A DNA stretch of 37,785 bases from Acidimicrobiia bacterium (GTDB lineage Bacteria; Actinomycetota; Acidimicrobiia; Spongiisociales; JAOTWH01). Below the pieces are notes generated by a model. That model saw only the letters and a list, made by a program, of their open reading frames with translations, did no database searches and had not been told where the DNA came from. Location of the stretch: positions 1-37,785 of the forward strand of contig JBFJZV010000001.1 of NCBI GenBank assembly GCA_041621915.1, written 5' to 3'. A program made the position numbers and the translations under genes. Below are positions 11,674-27,006 of the stretch, piece after piece (the stretch's first letter is position 1; every line of letters starts with the position of its first letter).

Positions 11674-11736
11674 GGCCCCCGCTGCTTTCAGCGGCGGCTC
11701 CGTGTACGGTTGGGGGAAGTCACGGGGGAGCGACGA

Positions 11737-14700
11737 GTGACGAATCGCGGGCACGTGTTCATCTCCTACGCACGCGCCGACGACGCCGAATTCGTAGACC
11801 GGTTGCGAACCGACCTCCAAGCGGGCGGCCTGCACGTTTGGTGGGACGAGTCCGCCATGGAGAGTCGCGGGGCGGGTTTCCTGCAGGAGCTCCAAGATGC
11901 CATCCGCAGCGCCGACCGCGTGGTGCTGGTTACTGGCCCGGCGGCCGGCCGCTCCGACTACGTGGAAGCGGAATGGCGGTTCGCGCTCGACGAGGCCTGC
12001 ACCGCAGTCACCCCGGTGTTCCGGTCGGGCGGGGTAGACGAGGCCCCACCCGGTGTGCAGCACCTGCACGGGGTGGACTTCGGCGACGACGGGCGCTATC
12101 GAGAGGCGCTCTACGAGCTGATCCGACTCCTGCGTAGCCAGCCGGCGGCGCAGGGACCGTTGTGGGGCGTCGACGCCCTCCCTCCGTATCACGTGCGCCG
12201 GCCTGACGTCGAGCGTGACCTGGCCGCCGCCGTGATGCCAGATCTCGGCGGCCCCGTCGCCGTGCCCGGGGAGCAGAGCGTGACCAGCCTCGTCGGCATG
12301 CCCGGCTCCGGGAAGTCCGTTGTCGCCGCTGCGTTCGCCCGCCTCTGTGCCACCCGTTGGGCATTCGGCGACGGCATCGTGTGGGCGCGGGTGGGGGAGT
12401 CGGCTTCGGCGCCGGCCGTGCTGCAGCGCGTCGCTCAGCGGCTTCAGGTCCCAGCCGCCGCCCTCTCCGAGCACCTGTCCGATCGAAGATGCCTGATCGT
12501 CCTGGACGACGTGTGGGACCAGAAGGTCGTGGAGCATGTGGCCGACGCCCTGGGACCTGTCTGCCGAGTGCTGCTGACGACCCGCCGCGGCGACCTGGCG
12601 ATCGCGGCCCGCAGCCTCCACCTGGACGTGATGGCCGGCGGGCTCGCCTTGCAGTTGCTGACCAGAGCCGCCGGCCGCGTCGACGCCGCCGAGCTACCGG
12701 GATCCGCCGAAACGATCATCGACGAATGCGGCGGGCTGCCGCTGGCGCTCGCGATGGTCGGTGCAGCTCTGGCGGGCAAGCCGGAGGACCGCTGGGCCAC
12801 GATGCTCGACCGGCTGCGCGGCGCCCGCCTCGGCGACATCCGCCACAGGCTGCCCCGCTACGACCACCCGACCCTGCTGGCCGCAATGGAGGCTGCTACG
12901 GCTGCGCTCGACTCCGATCCGGACGTGCCGGACCATGCTCGCGCCCGCTACGAGGACCTTGCCGCGTTCGAGCGTGACGGAGAGATACCCGAGCCGGCGC
13001 TGGCTGTCGTGTGGGCGGCCACCGGTCTCGACCCGGGCGGCACGCAGGACCTCTGCGACCTCCTCGTGAGCAGGTCGCTACTCCGCCGGAGCGTTTCCGG
13101 GCGGTACACGCTCCACAACCTGCAGGCCGACTACCTCCAGGGCACGCATCCCGACCTCAGCGGCCTGCACGGCCGGGTCGTGGCGGCGTATCGGGAATGC
13201 TGCGACGGTGATTGGGCAGCCGGTCCCAACGATGGTCATTACTTCCAGCAGCTCCCGGTGCACATGCGCGACGCCGGCCTCACAACGGAGCTGGCGGAGC
13301 TGCTGGGCGACCCGGATTGGATCGTCGCCAAGTTGGCGGCCACCGACCCGTGGACGCTGGCCGCCGACGAGGTGCTGGTCCCCGGAAACGCCGACGAGCA
13401 GCGGCTGCTGTACGAGGCGCTGCGGCGATCGGTGCCTGCCCTGGCGGCGGAAGCCCGTCAGCTCGCCCCCCAGCTCCTGGGCCGGCTCGGAGGCGTCGAC
13501 GTACCGGCGCTCGCCGTCGTCCTCGGCCGCATGAGGGAACAGGTCGACGGCACCTGGCTGGAACCGGTATGGGCAACCCTCGACCAACCGGGTGGCCCGC
13601 TGCGATGGACGCTCGAGGGGCACGTGGGCGCCGCCCATGGCGTGGCCGCAACCCCCGACGGCCGGCATGCCGTGGTTGGCACCACCGAGGGCCACGTGGT
13701 GCTCTGGGACCTGGCCACCGGGCGCCGCCGGATCGCCTTTCACAGACCCGACGCGCACGTCTGGGGCGTGGCGGTCACCGACGACGCCCGGCGGGTGGCG
13801 GCCGCGCTCGACGTCGACGGCGTCGCGGTCTGGGACGTGGCATCCGCCCAGGAACTGCCGACCGCATGGGAGCCCGGCGTGGCCGTGCGCGGCGTGGCCT
13901 TCGTCGACGGTGGAGCGCGGCTGGCGATCGGAACCGGCGAAGGTGAGGTGGCGGTGCTCGCGCTTGATGGGAGCCCGCTCGACCCGCTCGCCGGCCGCCA
14001 CGTCGAAGGCGTGCAGTCGCTGGTGGCGGCGCCGGGAGGGCGGATCGTGGTGACCGGCGACCAGGGCGGCGCGGTCGCGGCCTGGGACGTGCAAGCTCGC
14101 CGCCAACTGTGGTGCATGCCGGCCCACGACTCGGGCGTCTGGTCCGTCGCGTGTGATCGCGACGGCGCCCGCTGCCTGTCCGTGGCCAATCACAACACGG
14201 TTGTGCTTAGCGCATTGGAAACGGGGGAGACGCTCGCTTCCTTCGCCACGGGCGTATGGTCATTCGGGTGCTGCCTGCTCGACGACGGCCGGGCCGTGAC
14301 CAGCGACGCAGACGGAGAGCTGAAGATCTGGAAGCTGCCCGAGGGCGAGCGGATCGGCGGGCTGCGCGCCCACGACGCGATGGCCGATCGGGTGGCGGCG
14401 GCGGGTGGGGCGCGGGTGGTCTCGGTGGCGCGAGACGGCACCGCCCGGGTCTGGGACCTCGACGCACCCACGGGCACCGAGGTTTCCGCGCACGGGGGAC
14501 CCGTGTACGGCGTGGCCGTCTCGGCGGAACTGCAGGGAGTGATGGCGGCGTCGGAGGACCGGATGGCCACAGCGTGGGGTTTCGACTCCGGCGCGCGCCT
14601 ACTGAATATCGAGCTGAAACGCTGGGGCCGCCGGGTGGCGTTCGTGCCCGGCACGACGCTGATCCTCGTCGGCGACGCAGACGGGATCGTCCACCTCGTG

Positions 14701-15486
14701 AATCTGCGCGGGCCCGAGATGCTCCGCTCGCGTCAGCTGCACGTGCCGGCGGTCGACTCGACGCCCGAGGGCGGGACCGGCTTCGGCCTGGGCGGGGTGA
14801 CAGGCCTGGGTGTCTCGCCTCCGGTTGCGTGGTCATTCGGCGCCGACGGCGACCTCGCCCTCTGGCACCTGGAGCGGGACGAGATCGACCGCTCGTCGAC
14901 GGAGCTGGAGCCCCCCGTCGTCGGGGCGGTGGCCACCCGCTCCGATCGGGCCGTCGTCGGCGCCGGCGACGGCCTCCTGCGAGCGGGCCCGCTGTCGGGC
15001 GGTCTCGAGGCCAGGAGCCCCCCGGAGCCGGCCGCGGCCTGCGTGGCCGTGGCCATCGACGCAGTGGGGGCGATCGCCGTGTCGTCGCACGTTGACGGCG
15101 CCGTCATCGCCTGGCGCCTCGACGATCGCAAGGCCGGGTACCTCGAGCTCGGCGGCACCGCCGACGCCACGATCATGCACCTCGAAAGCGGCATGAAACT
15201 CCCGATCGGAGGTTCGTTGCAGGCGCCCGTCATGGCCCGCGGCTTGGCCGTCTCGGCCGATGGGCGGCTCGCCGTCGGCGCGTTCAGCGACGGCTGGGTC
15301 CGGGTGTGGGAGCTGGCTCGACTCGCCCAGGTGGCTGCCTTCCGCTGCGACGAGGCCTTGTTCTCGTGTGCGATCGACGGGAAGATGATCGCGGCCGGCG
15401 GGGCCCGCCGGGTGCACCTCCTTGAGCTGCACGAGGAAACCGGTCAGGACGCGGAGCGCCCCGCCTCGTCCTTGGCCATGAGGTAG
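11737..15486 (+). CDS. TIR - NB-ARC (AP-ATPase/STAND NTPase) - WD40-repeat protein, Apaf-1/NLR-like architecture
   Basis: The GTG at 11737 sits 6 nt after gggggag; the alternative TTG at 11710 is the track start. TIR domain: [11 protein letters not shown] (from 11752), LHVWWDE, VVLVTG, and SDYVEAEW with the catalytic-position Glu codon at 11971-11973. NB-ARC: Walker A GMPGSGKS at 12295-12318, Walker [10 protein letters not shown] at 12493-12519, LLTTR at 12571-12585, GGLPLAL at 12730-12750. Winged-helix segment [12 protein letters not shown] at 13102-13137 resembles the Apaf-1 YYLHDLQVDFL sensor-His region. About 14 WD-like blades span about 13597-15483 (VLWDL, AVWDV, AAWDV, KIWKL, RVWDL, LALWHL, VIAWRL, VRVWEL). 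It is a single uninterrupted ORF. Confidence 0.9.
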
Positions 15487-23145: not shown

Positions 23146-23688
23146 ATGACACGCCTCGACGACCTGATGCCCGACTACCAGCAGCGGACCCGCAACTGCC
23201 GAGCCGTGGTCGGCGCGCCCGAGGCGGCCGTGGCCGCGGCGCGCCGCCTGGAGGTGCGGGACGTGCGGGGGCTACGACTGCTGCTCGGCGTGCGTGCCCT
23301 GCCGGGCGTGGCCCGCGGCCGCTCGCCCATTGCCGCGGGCGGCCTCGTCGACCTCGCGCTCCGCTACGGGTTCGGCATCCTTGCCGATGAGCCGGGCGAG
23401 CTGGTGGTGGGGCTGATCGGCCAGCCGTGGAAGCCGGTGGGCGGCGAGGTGGTCCGGTTCGACGGTCCCGCCCGGTTCACCGCCTTCAACCGTCCCGGGT
23501 TCGTGAAGGTGGCGGCCGACGTCCGGGCCGAGCCGACCGGGCCGGGGTGCGTGGTGTGCACCGAAACCCGGGTGGCCGCCACCGACGCCGGCGCGGCGCG
23601 CCGGTTCGCCAGGTACTGGACCGTGATCCGCCCCTTCGGCGGCGTGGTGCGGCGGTCGCTCCTCGCCGCGGTCGCCAGGTCAGTCTGA
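23146..23688 (+). CDS. Hypothetical protein (possibly SRPBCC/DUF2867-like ligand-binding fold)
   Basis: The ATG at 23146 is in frame within track ORF 22987..23688. Third positions are GC-rich. The C-terminal pattern CTETRVAATDAGAARRFARYWTVIRPFGGVVRRSLL resembles a conserved actinobacterial family. I cannot confirm the family assignment. Confidence 0.65.
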   Translation: MTRLDDLMPDYQQRTRNCRAVVGAPEAAVAAARRLEVRDVRGLRLLLGVRALPGVARGRSPIAAGGLVDLALRYGFGILADEPGELVVGLIGQPWKPVGGEVVRFDGPARFTAFNRPGFVKVAADVRAEPTGPGCVVCTETRVAATDAGAARRFARYWTVIRPFGGVVRRSLLAAVARSV

Positions 23689-23689
23689 G

Positions 23690-24117
23690 TCAGGGCGCCT
23701 GCAAGTGCACCGGGCCGAAGCCGCGTGTCGACAGCTGCTCGGCGGCCACCCCGACCAGGACCGGCACGATGACGACCGGGACGCCCACGGCCCGCATCCA
23801 CGTGAGGATGGTGGCCTCCTTGAGCACCCAGTCGGACTCGACGGCCTGCTCGCTCAGCAGCAGCACCGCTCCGTCGGACTTGGCGAGCGCGAAGTGCAGG
23901 CCGTCACGCCACTCGGCGGGGGGGTCGAACCCGGCGCCTCGAGCCGGTCGACCAGCTCCTCGCGGAGCCGGTGGAGGGCGTCGGCTCGCCTCCATGTGGC
24001 CCGCTCCCCGGCGCTCGCCCCGGCCGGCTCCGGGCCGGGATCCCGGATGCTGTGGCTTATGAAGATCGACGGCGCGCTCGTCGGCCACCCCCTGCTCGTT
24101 CCCGCTCGCCGAATCTA
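23690..24117 (-). pseudogene. Small standalone TIR-like domain gene, frame-disrupted (pseudogene, or indel errors in homopolymer-rich sequence)
   Basis: The 3' two-thirds are track ORF 23690..24088: ...FDPPAEWRDGLHFALAKSDGAVLLLSEQAVESDWVLKEATILTWMRAVGVPVVIVPVLVG..., which carries the TIR alphaC SxWVxxE motif and an hhPVL beta-D strand. The expected beta-A strand IFISHS (24066-24049) and the helix ADALHRLREELVDRLEA are encoded in a different minus-strand frame that also has the better GC3. The two frames meet at 23918-23940, which includes a G7 run (23918-23924 on the plus strand). The upstream frame is closed by TAG at 24117-24115 and has no canonical start. Confidence 0.55.
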
Positions 24118-24142
24118 GTTGGCCGGCCGCCGCCGGTCTCGG

Positions 24143-26134
24143 TCACCGATCGAAGAACAGCACCGACTCGATCTCCACCTCCGGGTAGACGGTCTCGCAG
24201 GGGATCCCGTTCAGGTCGGCGTCCATCTGTGCCGGGCCGCCGTAGAACACCCAGTACGCCAGGGCGCTGATGAAGTCCCAGCCGCGGGCCTGCAGGTCGC
24301 GACAGAACAGCCCTGGAGGCTCGACCGTCGTGACGAAGTACTGGGTCTCGAGGTCGGTGATCGGGTAGACGGTCTCGCAGGGGACGCCGTCGAGGTCGGC
24401 GTCCATCCGATCCGGCCGTCCCTCGCGGACGTAGTACGACACGGCGGCCGAGTAGTTGAGGCCGCGGTCGGCCAGGTCGCGACAGAAGAGCCCCGGTGGC
24501 AGCGAGCTGTCAGGCGGCGGCGGGATGTCGATGACCATCGAGTAGGAGCCTCCCGTGCCCAGCGCGGCGACGCTGACCTGGTAGTCCTGCTCGAGCGTCA
24601 GCGGTCCGGCCACCAGCCCGTTGAGGCCGCTGGCCAGGGAGCCGTCGGCGAATCCCTCGACGCAAACCAGGAACGGCAGATCGGCTGCGCCCGGGTCGAG
24701 GGTCAGCGTCATGAACTGCCCGGGCAGCGCCCCGATCACGTATTGGTCGAGCCCGCCGGCGCCGAGCGACCCGTCCACCTCCCCGGCGGTGCCGCCGGGC
24801 GCGAACCGGATGCGCTCGCCTCCGGGGTCGAGCGGGTAGGCGAGGCAGGCCGCCTGGAGGTCGGCCGGGATCGTCCCCACGACGGCCTGGAGCGTCGTGT
24901 CGGGCGGCCTGGTCGTTGGCGGCGGGTTGGTGGTCGTCGTGGTGGCCGCCGTGGTGCCCGGCCCTCCGGTAGTCGGCGGCGGAGCGGTCTGGGTAGGCGG
25001 TGGCGGCTGGGTGAGGTTCGCGATGGTCGGCTCCGTACCGTTGCCGGCGAACGCGAAGAAGGCCCCGACGGCGGCGACGGCGGCGACGGCGGCGAGACCG
25101 AGCCCGGCGTACAGGCCCGTCCGCGAGCCCTGCGCGGGTGCCCGTTCCGGTGGCGGTGGAGGCGGTGGAGGCGGAGACGGCGGCACGGCGCGGGTCGCTC
25201 CTGCCCCGGCAGGCGGGCCACCGGCGGTCACGACCCTGGTCGTGTCGCCGACCGCGCCGGGCGTCCGCTCCCCTCGGAGCGCAGCGGCGAACGCTGCGGC
25301 CGACGGGGGACGCGCCCCCGCGTCCATCTCCATCGCCCACAGGATCGCCGCCTCCACATGGGGACTGAGGGTCGGGACGATCTGGCGGGGAAGCACGAGC
25401 TCGTGGCCCACGCCGCGGTCGATGGACCCCATCGGCATCTGCCCCGTCAACAGCTCGTAGAGCGTCGCGCCCAGCGCGTAGACGTCGATCGCGGGACCGA
25501 AGTGGCCCCGCTCGCTGTACTGCTCGATCGGCGCGTAGCCGGGACTCAACGTCTGCGACATGACCGATGAGCCCTCCCCGCCGAACTGGCGGGCGGTGCC
25601 GAAGTCGACGACCACCACGCTGCCGTCGTCGAGGACCAGCACGTTGTCGGGCTTGATGTCGCGGTGCAGCAGGCCCTCGCCGTGCACCGCTTCGAGGGCG
25701 TCGGCCACCTGGAGCACGTAGGCCACCGCCTGCTCCTCCTGGATCATGCCGCCAGCCATCCGGGTTACCTGGCGCAGGCTCCGCCCCTCGAGGTACTCCA
25801 TCACCATGTAGACGGTGTTGTTCTCGTCGAAGAACTCGAATACCTGCACGATCCCCGGGTGGCGGAACCTGGCGAGCGTGCGAGCTTCCTCGCGGAAGCG
25901 CTCCTTGCGGTCCCGGAACTGGTCGGCGATCGTCGGCGACGGCTGCACGGTGACGCCGGCCCGGGTGCTGCCGGCCAGGAAGAACTCCTTGATCGCCACC
26001 GGCCGGCCCAGCTTGGTGTCGGTGGCCCGGTAGGTGATGCCGAACCCGCCCTGGCCCAGCACCCGCTCCAGCACGTAGCGGCCGCCGTCGAGCGTCGTCT
26101 GCGGGCCGAGCGTGAACTGCTGCGGCGTCGTCAC
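24143..26134 (-). CDS. Transmembrane Hanks-type Ser/Thr protein kinase with extracellular beta-sandwich-like domain and two Excalibur-like Ca-binding repeats
   Basis: The GTG at 26134 has a GGGGGTGG RBS. Kinase motifs are GQGGFGITY, VAIKE, HRDIKPDNVLV, DFGTAR and SPGYAPIEQ. A poly-Pro linker and a TM helix (GLYAGLGLAAVAAVAAVGAFFAFAG, about 25043-25117) follow. The ectodomain has a Pro/Thr-rich linker and two copies of PPGLFCRDL...MDADL(D/N)G(V/I)PCETVYP, matching DxDxDGxxCE. Confidence 0.92.
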   Translation of the reverse strand: MTTPQQFTLGPQTTLDGGRYVLERVLGQGGFGITYRATDTKLGRPVAIKEFFLAGSTRAGVTVQPSPTIADQFRDRKERFREEARTLARFRHPGIVQVFEFFDENNTVYMVMEYLEGRSLRQVTRMAGGMIQEEQAVAYVLQVADALEAVHGEGLLHRDIKPDNVLVLDDGSVVVVDFGTARQFGGEGSSVMSQTLSPGYAPIEQYSERGHFGPAIDVYALGATLYELLTGQMPMGSIDRGVGHELVLPRQIVPTLSPHVEAAILWAMEMDAGARPPSAAAFAAALRGERTPGAVGDTTRVVTAGGPPAGAGATRAVPPSPPPPPPPPPERAPAQGSRTGLYAGLGLAAVAAVAAVGAFFAFAGNGTEPTIANLTQPPPPTQTAPPPTTGGPGTTAATTTTTNPPPTTRPPDTTLQAVVGTIPADLQAACLAYPLDPGGERIRFAPGGTAGEVDGSLGAGGLDQYVIGALPGQFMTLTLDPGAADLPFLVCVEGFADGSLASGLNGLVAGPLTLEQDYQVSVAALGTGGSYSMVIDIPPPPDSSLPPGLFCRDLADRGLNYSAAVSYYVREGRPDRMDADLDGVPCETVYPITDLETQYFVTTVEPPGLFCRDLQARGWDFISALAYWVFYGGPAQMDADLNGIPCETVYPEVEIESVLFFDR
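24182..24499 (-). repeat. Tandem intragenic duplication (period 180 nt) encoding the two Excalibur-like modules of the kinase
   Basis: Unit 24182-24319 and unit 24362-24499 are visibly similar at the DNA level. Compare gggtagacggtctcgcaggggatcccgttcaggtcggcgtccat with gggtagacggtctcgcaggggacgccgtcgaggtcggcgtccat, and the shared gtcgcgacagaa(c/g)agccc(t/c)gg(a/t)gg. Confidence 0.8.
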
Positions 26135-26179: not shown

Positions 26180-26719
26180 TCAGTCCGGCTCGGGGCCGTC
26201 TTCGTGCTGCACCAGCAATCGGTGCAACGCATCGGTGAGCGCGTGCCGGTCGATGGGCTCGAGGCGGGCGAAGAAATCACGTTGAGAGCGGTGGAGAGCC
26301 CGGAAGGCTCGGTCGGCGACCCTGCGACCGGCGCCGGTCAGTGCGACTTGCCGCTTTCGCCCGTCCGACTTGTCTCCGTCCATGCGGATCAGCTGGTGTG
26401 CTTCGAGCCGCTTCAGGCGTCCCGTGATGCCGGCTTTCGTCACGTGCAGCCGCTTCGCCAGTGCTCCAGGGGTGACCGGCTTGCCACGGCGCCGGAGCAG
26501 CGACAGCACCTCGTAATCGCCGAAGTTGTCGAGGTGAGGGACATCCCGCAGGCTGCCGCGCAGGTGCTCTTCGAGCAGGATGCAGGCGCGGCGCAGCCGC
26601 AGGGTCGCCTCCAGCGCCGACACGTCCACCTCGTCTGGCATCAGTCGTTGCCAGGCGAACACGGCCTCGGCCGTGTAGTCGGTATCGGGCTCTGGTCGCA
26701 AGGTCCTGGTCGAGACCAT
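26180..26719 (-). CDS. MarR-family transcriptional regulator
   Basis: The ATG at 26719 lies 5 nt after AGAGGGG; the alternative GTG is at 26725. The winged-HTH is VTPGALAKRLHVTKAGITGRLKRLEAHQLIRMDGDKSDGRKRQVALTGAGRR. It ends 45 nt upstream of the kinase gene on the same strand. Confidence 0.88.
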   Translation of the reverse strand: MVSTRTLRPEPDTDYTAEAVFAWQRLMPDEVDVSALEATLRLRRACILLEEHLRGSLRDVPHLDNFGDYEVLSLLRRRGKPVTPGALAKRLHVTKAGITGRLKRLEAHQLIRMDGDKSDGRKRQVALTGAGRRVADRAFRALHRSQRDFFARLEPIDRHALTDALHRLLVQHEDGPEPD

Positions 26720-26740
26720 GTGCACCCCTCTTGGATCCTC

Positions 26741-26780
26741 TTGACAATGGATCGTACGTTAACTAACTTTTATGGTTAGT
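26741..26780 (+). promoter_or_regulatory. Candidate sigma-70-type promoter (TTGACA-17-TAACTT) overlapped by an inverted repeat (possible MarR operator)
   Basis: TTGACA lies at 26741-26746, then a 17-nt spacer, then TAACTT at 26764-26769. The inverted repeat is AACTAAC (26761-26767) / GTTAGT (26775-26780) with a 7-nt AT-rich spacer. This is the most AT-rich stretch of the window and lies immediately upstream of the divergent marR. Confidence 0.35.
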
Positions 26781-26821
26781 GCGCTTACAAACAGAGCGGG
26801 ACCTACGGGCACGTCGGCTGG

Positions 26822-26992
26822 GTGACGGCGGTTCGTCGGGACGGCGGGAAGTTGCTCATCGACTTCGTCGACATGAACGGCGGGACCTACCTCGCCGGAA
26901 CCGATGCGAAGACGACCGACTTCGGGGTCTTCAAGAACCGCACGAGGACCTGGGACCCGTCCATCCACCGCTTCATCCTCGCTACCCCCTGA
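26822..26992 (+). CDS. Small orphan ORF (56 aa) or 3' remnant of a truncated gene
   Basis: Not in the track (<60 aa). GTG 26822 gives VTAVRRDGGKLLIDFVDMNGGTYLAGTDAKTTDFGVFKNRTRTWDPSIHRFILATP. GC3 is high. The coding-like frame continues upstream (AYKQSGTYGHVGW) to a TAG at 26777-26779 with no canonical start, which suggests truncation. A perfect hairpin follows. Confidence 0.3.
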   Translation: MTAVRRDGGKLLIDFVDMNGGTYLAGTDAKTTDFGVFKNRTRTWDPSIHRFILATP

Positions 26993-27006
26993 TCCGCCCC
27001 AGCACC

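Follow-up and report, generated by a model that had tools for sequence, protein, structure and literature searches.

How did a TIR-like gene come to be divided between two reading frames? The question arises at positions 23690-24117 of a contig from an Acidimicrobiia bacterium (JBFJZV010000001.1, positions 1 to 37,785), the whole of which is referred to here as the window (37.8 kb, G+C 72%). The original prediction, made from the letters of the window, had described a standalone TIR-like gene whose frames meet near a run of seven G residues (G7), and had named three explanations: gene decay, indel errors in homopolymers of the assembly or, less likely, a slippage-prone on/off switch. Our comparison with an intact copy at the same locus leaves little doubt that the feature is a non-functional relic, the 5' third of a gene that we call TIR-X, and that the cassette to which it belonged (TIR-X, an AAA+ ATPase gene and a third gene, G3) was destroyed in situ in this lineage. 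We would annotate the feature as an ordinary pseudogene, not as a 101-amino-acid (aa) "TIR domain protein."

The TIR-like sequence occupies two minus-strand frames

The minus-strand open reading frame (ORF) described earlier at 23690-24088, with its SxWVxxE-type Glu and the strand VVIVPVLVG, is present as stated. This frame, here frame 1, runs from a GTG at 24088 to 23690 and encodes 132 aa; its C-terminal part contains AVLLLSEQAVESDWVLKEATILTWMRAVGVPVVIVPVLVG and ends in LQAP before the stop, and its final 80 residues are GFDPPAEWRDGLHFALAKSDGAVLLLSEQAVESDWVLKEATILTWMRAVGVPVVIVPVLVGVAAEQLSTRGFGPVHLQAP. A 101-aa version starting at ATG 23995 (P0001) is called by gene finders. The second minus-strand frame, frame 0, reads IRRAGTSRGWPTSAPSIFISHSIRDPGPEPAGASAGERATWRRADALHRLREELVDRLEAPG past the TAG at 24117-24115 and carries IFISHS at 24066-24049, followed by the helix sequence ADALHRLREELVDRLEA. 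Both the position of this motif and helix in a frame of their own and the lack of a canonical start held up on translation, as a scan of frame 0 downstream of the TAG found no ATG, GTG or TTG. The run of seven G residues is at 23918-23924. A change of phase in the position-specific GC profile falls between ~23900 and 23940: below 23930, frame 1 has a third-position GC (GC3) of ~0.97-1.0, and above 23930 frame 0 has ~0.9. The two TIR motifs are both present, the βA motif IFISHS in frame 0 and the αC W-x-x-x-E motif within SDWVLKE in frame 1 (Glu codon 23818-23816); a complete βA-to-βE flavodoxin-like fold within one translatable ORF was not found in the window copy. The Glu of WVLKE occupies the position of the catalytic glutamate in NADase-type TIR domains. 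The coding remnants are as follows, in the residue numbering of the intact homologue P0122 introduced below.

23935 to 24078, minus strand: frame-0 relic, residues 2 to ~48, with βA (IFISHS), an acidic/Pro-rich insert and αA (translation; BLASTP; tblastn match 24081-23920; AlphaFold map of P0122).
23693 to 23934, minus strand: frame-1 relic, residues 49-51 and 61-136, with αB, βC (AVLLLS), αC (SDWVLKE) and βD (VVIVPVLVG) (BLASTP, tblastn, Pfam TIR_2).
23816 to 23818, minus strand: GAG codon for the Glu of WVLKE, equivalent to the family-invariant E97 of P0122 (sequence; family alignments).

An exhaustive HMMER search using the in-frame C-terminal 80 aa as a query (E ≤ 1e-3) identified 309 relatives, nearly all of them 410-470 aa long and matching at residues ~40-140. 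The best of these, P0122 (472 aa), is 81% identical over 77 residues. A word-indexed protein search with the repaired protein had brought up nothing but the 101-aa ORF of the window itself; since the exhaustive search found P0122, that negative was misleading and no proof of absence. By BLASTP, the frame-0 peptide aligns with P0122 residues 1-45 (53% identity, E 5e-12) and the frame-1 ORF with residues 59-136 (79% identity, E 8e-29). With E values of this size against P0122, the TIR similarity of the two frames is not a matter of chance. The profile search with Pfam TIR_2 (PF13676) that had been suggested at the outset gave a divided result: the ORF (24.1 bits) and its conceptual repair (27.0 bits) both fall below the 28-bit gathering cut-off, and the intact homologues, at 37.3-54.6 bits, lie above it.

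An intact copy follows the same kinase gene

P0122 is encoded on contig L021 from run SRR29257408, which belongs to the same accession series as the runs that contain the window sequence. L021 opens with ATCGAGTCGGTGCTGTTCTTCGA, the 3' end of a kinase gene, and its first 23 nucleotides (nt) are identical to the last 23 nt of the kinase gene that precedes the relic in the window. After the kinase end come a leader homologous to window 24142-24082 and then the TIR gene. A second strain, represented by contig L088 and 98.6% identical to L021, has the same intact gene; there, the TIR gene overlaps by 4 nt a downstream gene for a 341-aa AAA+ ATPase. That ATPase carries the Walker A motif GEPGTGKS, and LIDELD, read by eye, is a candidate for its Walker B motif. 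The gene is thus not standalone, as first described: its intact form is a two-part protein of 420-470 aa that heads an operon with an AAA+ ATPase.

In an alignment of 51 family members (A2), D55, W65 and E97 are invariant, and F7, S9, H10, S91, W93 and V94 are nearly so, with F7, S9, H10 and W93 conserved in at least 90% of the 51. E97 is also invariant in alignment A3. An AlphaFold model of P0122 (predicted local distance difference test score 82.8, predicted TM-score 0.81) places βA at residues 5-9, αA at 22-47, βB at 51-54, αB at 65-75, βC at 78-84, αC at 92-106, βD at 112-118 and βE at 141-143, followed beyond the TIR domain by a helical domain (164-305) and an α/β domain (313-470). Foldseek matched the modeled N-terminal domain to solved TIR structures (RPS4, RUN1, L6, SARM1, AbTir, PdTIR, TcpB and SPARTA) with target-normalised TM-scores of 0.55-0.69; its matches to P0122 were all to TIR domains, with nothing convincing for the remainder of the protein, the X region. 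Judged by this model, the window relic would be incapable of a TIR fold, because it lacks βB with D55, βE, the C-terminal domains and an in-frame start for βA.

The lesions are a lost start codon, an internal deletion and a 3' truncation

Aligning the gene with intact homologues had been proposed as a way to locate its lesions. We aligned the relic with the intact gene on L021 at the nucleotide level (A1) and with P0122, and this located four affected sites.

24079 to 24081, minus strand: start-codon loss, ACG where the intact gene has ATG (A1, gap-free from CAGGGGG to TCTTCAT; L021 AATGGCC, window GACGAGC).
23934 to 23935, strand not applicable: frameshift point, where one base of GCGGCCGG is gone (GCGCCGG here) or where a single 28-nt deletion has its left edge (A1, two alignments compared).
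23918 to 23928, minus strand: junction of a 27-nt deletion between TCGACCCC repeats, with WLDQRKLDP gone (βB and the invariant Asp55); the G7/C7 run is here (A1, 51-member alignment, model).
23680 to 23700, strand not applicable: right breakpoint; TIR homology stops after GFGPVHL (possibly after QA) near 23700, and homology to the convergent gene of relatives restarts at 23679 (blastn, A1).

At the 5' end, BLASTP likewise sets a window Thr (ACG) opposite Met1 of P0122. The original prediction had considered a second lesion near the start likely. The lesion there is the change from ATG to ACG; because the ancestral ATG aligns to ACG without a gap, no second frameshift is required, and the GTG at 24088, which is in the other frame, is fortuitous. 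The same gap-free alignment ruled out our own first repair of the gene, which read MADERA-PSIFISHS and placed a second frameshift after GTG 24088.

Within the gene, A1 contains two in-frame changes, a 6-nt difference in the variable loop 3' of βA and a 3-nt deletion of one Gln codon in the window copy, and one net deletion of 28 nt (~23921-23935) with which strand βB is lost and the frame shifted. Here the intact gene reads GCG GCC GGC TTC GAC CCC TGG CTC GAC CAG CGC AAG CTC GAC CCC CCG GCG GAA TGG, and its counterpart in the window GCG CC GGG TTC GAC CCC CCC GCC GAG TGG. Two alignments are possible, with one mismatch and four mismatches, respectively, over the 14 nt just upstream of the run. 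The better one implies a 27-nt deletion between the two TCGACCCC repeats together with a separate 1-nt loss in GCGGCCGG. A 27-nt deletion between direct repeats of this kind would imply replication slippage. Whether one event or two are assumed, the frame breaks at 23934/23935. The frames do meet near the G7 run, as had been observed, yet the junction lies ~10 nt upstream of the run and outside it. The run itself encodes Pro-Pro in frame 1, where the intact gene has CCC CCG (C6 then G), and the change from CCG to CCC is synonymous. Because the run shares the frame of the codons downstream and differs only by this synonymous change, it is not the lesion, and A1 ruled out both slippage from C7 to C8 and -1 slippage at the run as candidates for it. 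A homopolymer near a frame break, in other words, need not be what broke the frame.

At the 3' end, tblastn of P0122 against the whole window matched only residues 1-52 (24081-23920) and 59-136 (23929-23699). Residues 137-472, the AAA+ partner and G3 were found nowhere in the 37.8 kb by tblastn. The window gene ends at codon 136-140 of the intact gene, so that ~1 kb of it and the partner genes are gone. Its final codons were created by the 3' deletion, and a single nt separates its new stop, TGA at 23692-23690, from that of the convergent gene.

With each lesion read off against an intact copy from the same site, the suggestion of a decaying TIR gene is borne out; counter-selection of a toxic NADase, which had been named with it, would be one possible reason for the loss. 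We propose that the cassette formerly lay between a Ser/Thr kinase gene and a convergent gene for a 180-aa protein. One deletion, with its edges at codon 136-140 of TIR-X and at the 3' end of the convergent gene, would have taken ~1 kb of TIR-X and all of its partners. Slippage between the TCGACCCC repeats probably removed 27 nt, and with them βB, and a 1-nt loss (net 28 nt) would have set the frameshift at 23934/23935. The start codon would have mutated from ATG to ACG. We infer that the remaining stub makes no active TIR protein, because it has no start in the right frame, no βB or invariant Asp, and neither βE nor anything downstream of it.

The site is empty in related lineages

The genes that flank the relic anchor the variable site on both sides.

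24143 to 26134, minus strand: Ser/Thr protein kinase gene, 663 aa, left anchor of the variable site (ORF; orthologues of 82-64% identity).
24082 to 24142, minus strand: leader from the kinase stop to the former TIR start, with TAG 24117-24115 and an AGGGGG Shine-Dalgarno-like motif (A1, blastn, junction sequences).
23146 to 23688, plus strand: convergent 180-aa gene with no Pfam match, right anchor (ORF, blastn); it abuts or overlaps the kinase stop in four relatives.

Kinase orthologues at 82, 81, 76 and 64% aa identity led to the syntenic contigs L015, L016, L020 and L017-L019. On each of these contigs the kinase gene and a homologue of the 180-aa gene have stops that abut or overlap, and the TIR site is empty. 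By blastn, window positions 26194-24141 and 23679-22416 align with these contigs, and the ~460 nt between them (24140-23680) stand opposite 9-14 nt in the relatives (blastn, junction sequences). L021 and L088 have a conserved leader, which is missing in the four relatives without the island, and the last 2-5 residues of the convergent protein are unlike those of its orthologues. A neighbor-joining tree of the kinase, (((window,(L015,L016)),L020),L017), nests the window among empty-site lineages. Scanning genome contigs with the 180-aa protein returned distant, non-syntenic homologues only, and Rfam together with promoter and terminator consensus scans of 23300-24400 returned nothing. The locus documents how such cassettes are gained and lost at one exact intergenic position in an uncultured bacterium of high GC content.

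An empty site in four relatives could also mean that a ~460-nt piece of TIR-X was put between the convergent genes as a fragment, by illegitimate recombination or horizontal transfer, and a TGACC pentamer, which in comparison with L015 flanks the extra DNA on either side, would fit such an event. This 5-nt repeat is nevertheless short enough to occur by chance and appears in the comparison with just one relative of the four. Moreover, L021 and L088 carry the intact gene at this very junction, separated from the kinase stop by a homologous 60-nt leader, and a full cassette followed by deletion is for that reason the simplest history. We regard fragment insertion as unlikely.

Sequence divergence points to a late inactivation

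Relative to the intact gene, the C-terminal 78 codons of the relic have a synonymous divergence (dS) of 0.77 and a ratio of nonsynonymous to synonymous divergence (dN/dS) of 0.16; in the N-terminal 44 codons, a region that is variable across the family, dN/dS is 0.59. Overall dS between relic and intact gene is 0.73, and kinase dS between the window and the empty-site relatives is 0.49-0.68. Given so large a dS (~0.7), the intact copy belongs to a related species-level lineage and not to a sister strain. The low C-terminal dN/dS indicates that most of the divergence accrued under purifying selection, which suggests that inactivation came late.

Three points weigh against reading the feature as a dead remnant of a cassette lost in place. 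The frame-1 part keeps a GC3 of ~1.0 along with its dN/dS of 0.16, and on these measures a retained small ORF and a recent inactivation look alike. Gene callers do predict the 101-aa ORF at the relic. Lastly, because only 23 nt of the L021 kinase are known, that lineage has no place on the kinase tree, and a single gain followed by decay cannot be told apart from several losses or exchanges through the conserved flanks.

The first two points bear on whether the ORF, either as 101 aa from ATG 23995 or as 132 aa from GTG 24088, has been retained as a small protein, for instance one that modulates a TIR-NB-ARC-WD40 protein encoded 8 kb away. The open frame, its strong codon signature, the constraint on the C-terminal 78 codons and a second TIR protein nearby all speak for this. 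Even so, recent inactivation would be expected to leave a low dN/dS anyway, and the first 30-55 residues of such a protein would be out-of-frame sequence rich in Arg, Pro and Gly. It would also lack βA, αA, βB and βE, so that the fold modeled for P0122 is predicted to be out of its reach, and it has no sequence relation to the neighboring TIR. No homologous short ORFs were seen, although HMMER matches below ~200 aa, which may be fragments on short contigs, were left unexamined. A retained small protein is in our judgment very improbable.

The relic and its G7 run are invariant across assemblies

P0001 is on record in 90 sample blocks, from which the 24 longest contigs were read and 10 places retrieved; the 601 nt around the feature are identical at all 10. 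As this look-up depended on the tract, it was redone through the neighboring 180-aa protein. In total, the 466-nt relic is identical, G7 included, in 16 of 16 independent assemblies (6 NCBI metagenome-assembled genomes [MAGs] and 10 Logan assemblies of separate runs), 10 of them retrieved through the neighboring gene and hence independently of tract length. The assemblies are consensus sequences. Elsewhere the same assemblies do differ, with single-nucleotide polymorphisms (SNPs) and a 656-nt indel in the flanks. This invariance over 466 nt disfavors both assembly error and phase variation.

Under phase variation or recoding, a toxic TIR protein would be toggled by tract slippage (G7 to G8) or by -1 ribosomal frameshifting on C_CCC_CCG. 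One added base in the run does formally fuse frame 0 to frame 1, and C CCC CCG, read by eye, matches the X_XXY_YYZ pattern in frame 0. By homology, however, the GFDP just upstream of the run is already in frame 1, which puts the run inside the downstream frame and not at the junction, and frame 0 has no start codon. Any fusion would still lack βB with D55 and ~330 C-terminal residues, and no tract length restores the start, βB or the 3' two-thirds. For a programmed -1 frameshift, then, there is no frame-0 start, the heptamer lies downstream of the true junction and the product would be a truncated TIR; for a phase-variable locus, the tract is off the junction. Nor did the tract-length comparison that had been suggested for related strains reveal any polymorphism among the 16 consensus assemblies, in all of which the tract is G7, itself derived from C6 plus G by a synonymous change. 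We consider a switch highly implausible.

That the gene is intact in the organism and was split by homopolymer indel errors, as the G7 run near the junction of a metagenome-assembled contig might suggest, can be practically dismissed, since none of the lesions is a homopolymer-length error (T has become C in the start codon, a net 28 nt are deleted at a point 10 nt upstream of the run, and >1 kb is gone from the 3' end) and they recur base for base over 466 nt in 16 separate assemblies whose flanks differ by SNPs and the 656-nt indel.

The relic derives from a conserved TIR-X/AAA+/G3 cassette

TIR-X proteins are 420-470 aa long and have an N-terminal TIR domain, to which a helical and an α/β domain are joined. 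TIR-X is followed in every family locus examined (L021, L022/L023, L024/L025, L026 and L027) by a gene for an AAA_5/MoxR-like ATPase. Among 50 further metagenome loci, the AAA+ gene is present in all 31 where at least 500 nt are available for it, and G3 in all 15 that offer at least 1.9 kb. The cassette, represented by loci L021, L088, L022, L024, L026, L027 and L038-L086, encodes TIR-X (~430 aa), a MoxR-like AAA+ ATPase (~340 aa) and G3 (310-370 aa). Of this arrangement the window retains the TIR part, recognizable by its homology to P0122 and the 309 relatives; the X region (residues ~160-470) and downstream AAA+ and G3 genes were not detected in the window by tblastn.

G3 has no significant Pfam or PDB sequence-profile match. 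Its members share a conserved C-terminal domain with D-x-G-x-x-M and T-D-L-G motifs, and 1 of 14 has a weak match to VWA_CoxE (E 0.029); one might speculate from these that G3 is a very divergent vWA protein. The X and G3 parts match nothing in Pfam or NCBIfam. PADLOC 2.0 and NCBIfam recognized only the TIR and P-loop parts, with no whole named system matching the cassette, and our literature searches found no description of a TIR-X/AAA+/G3 cassette. At one cassette locus there are additional genes for LmuA/Avs1a-like metallo-β-lactamase-fold proteins, and at another a SLATT gene lies upstream. The MarR-family gene upstream of TIR-X in L022 was considered as a possible link to the MarR gene of the window; at 28% identity over 65 aa (E 3.5), this was ruled out.

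We infer that the parent cassette is an NAD+-consuming defense or conflict system under ATPase control. The relic marks a small variable site. More tentatively, the cassette may be a new anti-phage or conflict system that depletes NAD+ and is gated by its ATPase, a proposal that we hold as possible and short of probable. Were it true, the intact lineage (L021 and L088) and the dead lineage (the window), which come from the same sample series, would form a natural with/without pair. The tight conservation of the cassette makes it a reasonable candidate for experimental testing as a defense system.

Relation to known TIR and conflict systems

NADase-type TIR domains (TIR_2; AbTir, PdTIR, TcpB/BtpA, Thoeris ThsB, the SPARTA TIR, plant TIRs and SARM1) offer the closest comparison for the TIR part. 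The TIR-X family shares with them the FISHS-type βA and the SxWVxxE motif with its invariant Glu; the intact homologue scores above the Pfam cut-off, and its modeled N terminus resembles RPS4, RUN1, SARM1, AbTir and PdTIR. The window copy, in contrast, is a frameshifted fragment that has no start, has lost βB and its Asp, ends before βE and scores below the cut-off. For the family as a whole, NADase activity is putative, as judged from these motifs.

For the cassette, MoxR-vWA-centered ternary conflict systems, which combine these components with TIR and other effectors, have been described (Kaur, Burroughs, Iyer and Aravind, eLife 2020, PMC7159879). Like them, the cassette pairs a TIR protein with a MoxR-like AAA+ ATPase (AAA_5, weak bpMoxR matches) and has one more conserved protein; the metagenome contigs that carry it are high in GC and of soil type, and one of its loci adjoins a SLATT gene. 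Unlike them, it has no VMAP, iSTAND or clear vWA component by Pfam, and TIR-X, at ~430 aa, is much shorter than, and not recognizably related to, the third components named in that work. Because none of their diagnostic third components was detected, we did not file the cassette with these systems. They appear to be the nearest described logic for it, and membership is unproven.

The site also resembles decayed genes in defense islets: it is filled in some lineages and empty in others, it combines multiple lesions with a partial deletion, and lineage-specific insertions lie nearby (a MarR gene and a CHAP gene, the latter truncated in this strain). It differs from such islets in that no mobile-element genes, tRNA or clear target-site duplication were seen among the gene calls and junctions viewed, although no dedicated tRNA or repeat scan was made, and also in that its parent cassette is not a named PADLOC 2.0 or NCBIfam system.

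Other features of the neighborhood

The other TIR locus of the window, at 11710-15486 on the plus strand, encodes a STAND protein of 1,258 aa in which TIR_2 (77 bits) is combined with NB-ARC, WD40 repeats, and a winged helix and helical domain like those of APAF-1. The idea that the relic is a recent duplicate of this TIR-NB-ARC-WD40 gene ~8 kb away was ruled out (BLASTP E 1.3).

The C terminus of the kinase that adjoins the relic (window 24150-24500) contains two tandem modules of ~60 aa with the pattern PPGLFCRDL...MDADLDG[VI]PCETVYP. These modules have faint Excalibur matches in precomputed Pfam annotation, and the copies cross-match in blastn comparisons with relatives.

On the far side of the kinase, window 26180-27000 holds a MarR-family regulator gene (26180-26725, minus strand) and a CHAP relic, both lying between a DUF1059 gene and the kinase in the window's species only; in L015-L020 the DUF1059 gene directly adjoins the kinase. 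The GC content of this segment (0.62-0.64, versus 0.72 overall) suggests foreign DNA. With the MarR/CHAP segment on one side and the TIR relic on the other, both flanks of the kinase are insertion sites. At 26795/26796 the window lacks 656 nt that are present in strains L002 and L003 of the same species (>99.6% identical), and a 267-aa CHAP-domain gene of the cell-wall hydrolase type is thereby reduced to a 56-aa ORF (26822-26992, plus strand). This truncation lies 3 kb from the TIR relic, is polymorphic among MAGs and represents another recent loss of a gene.

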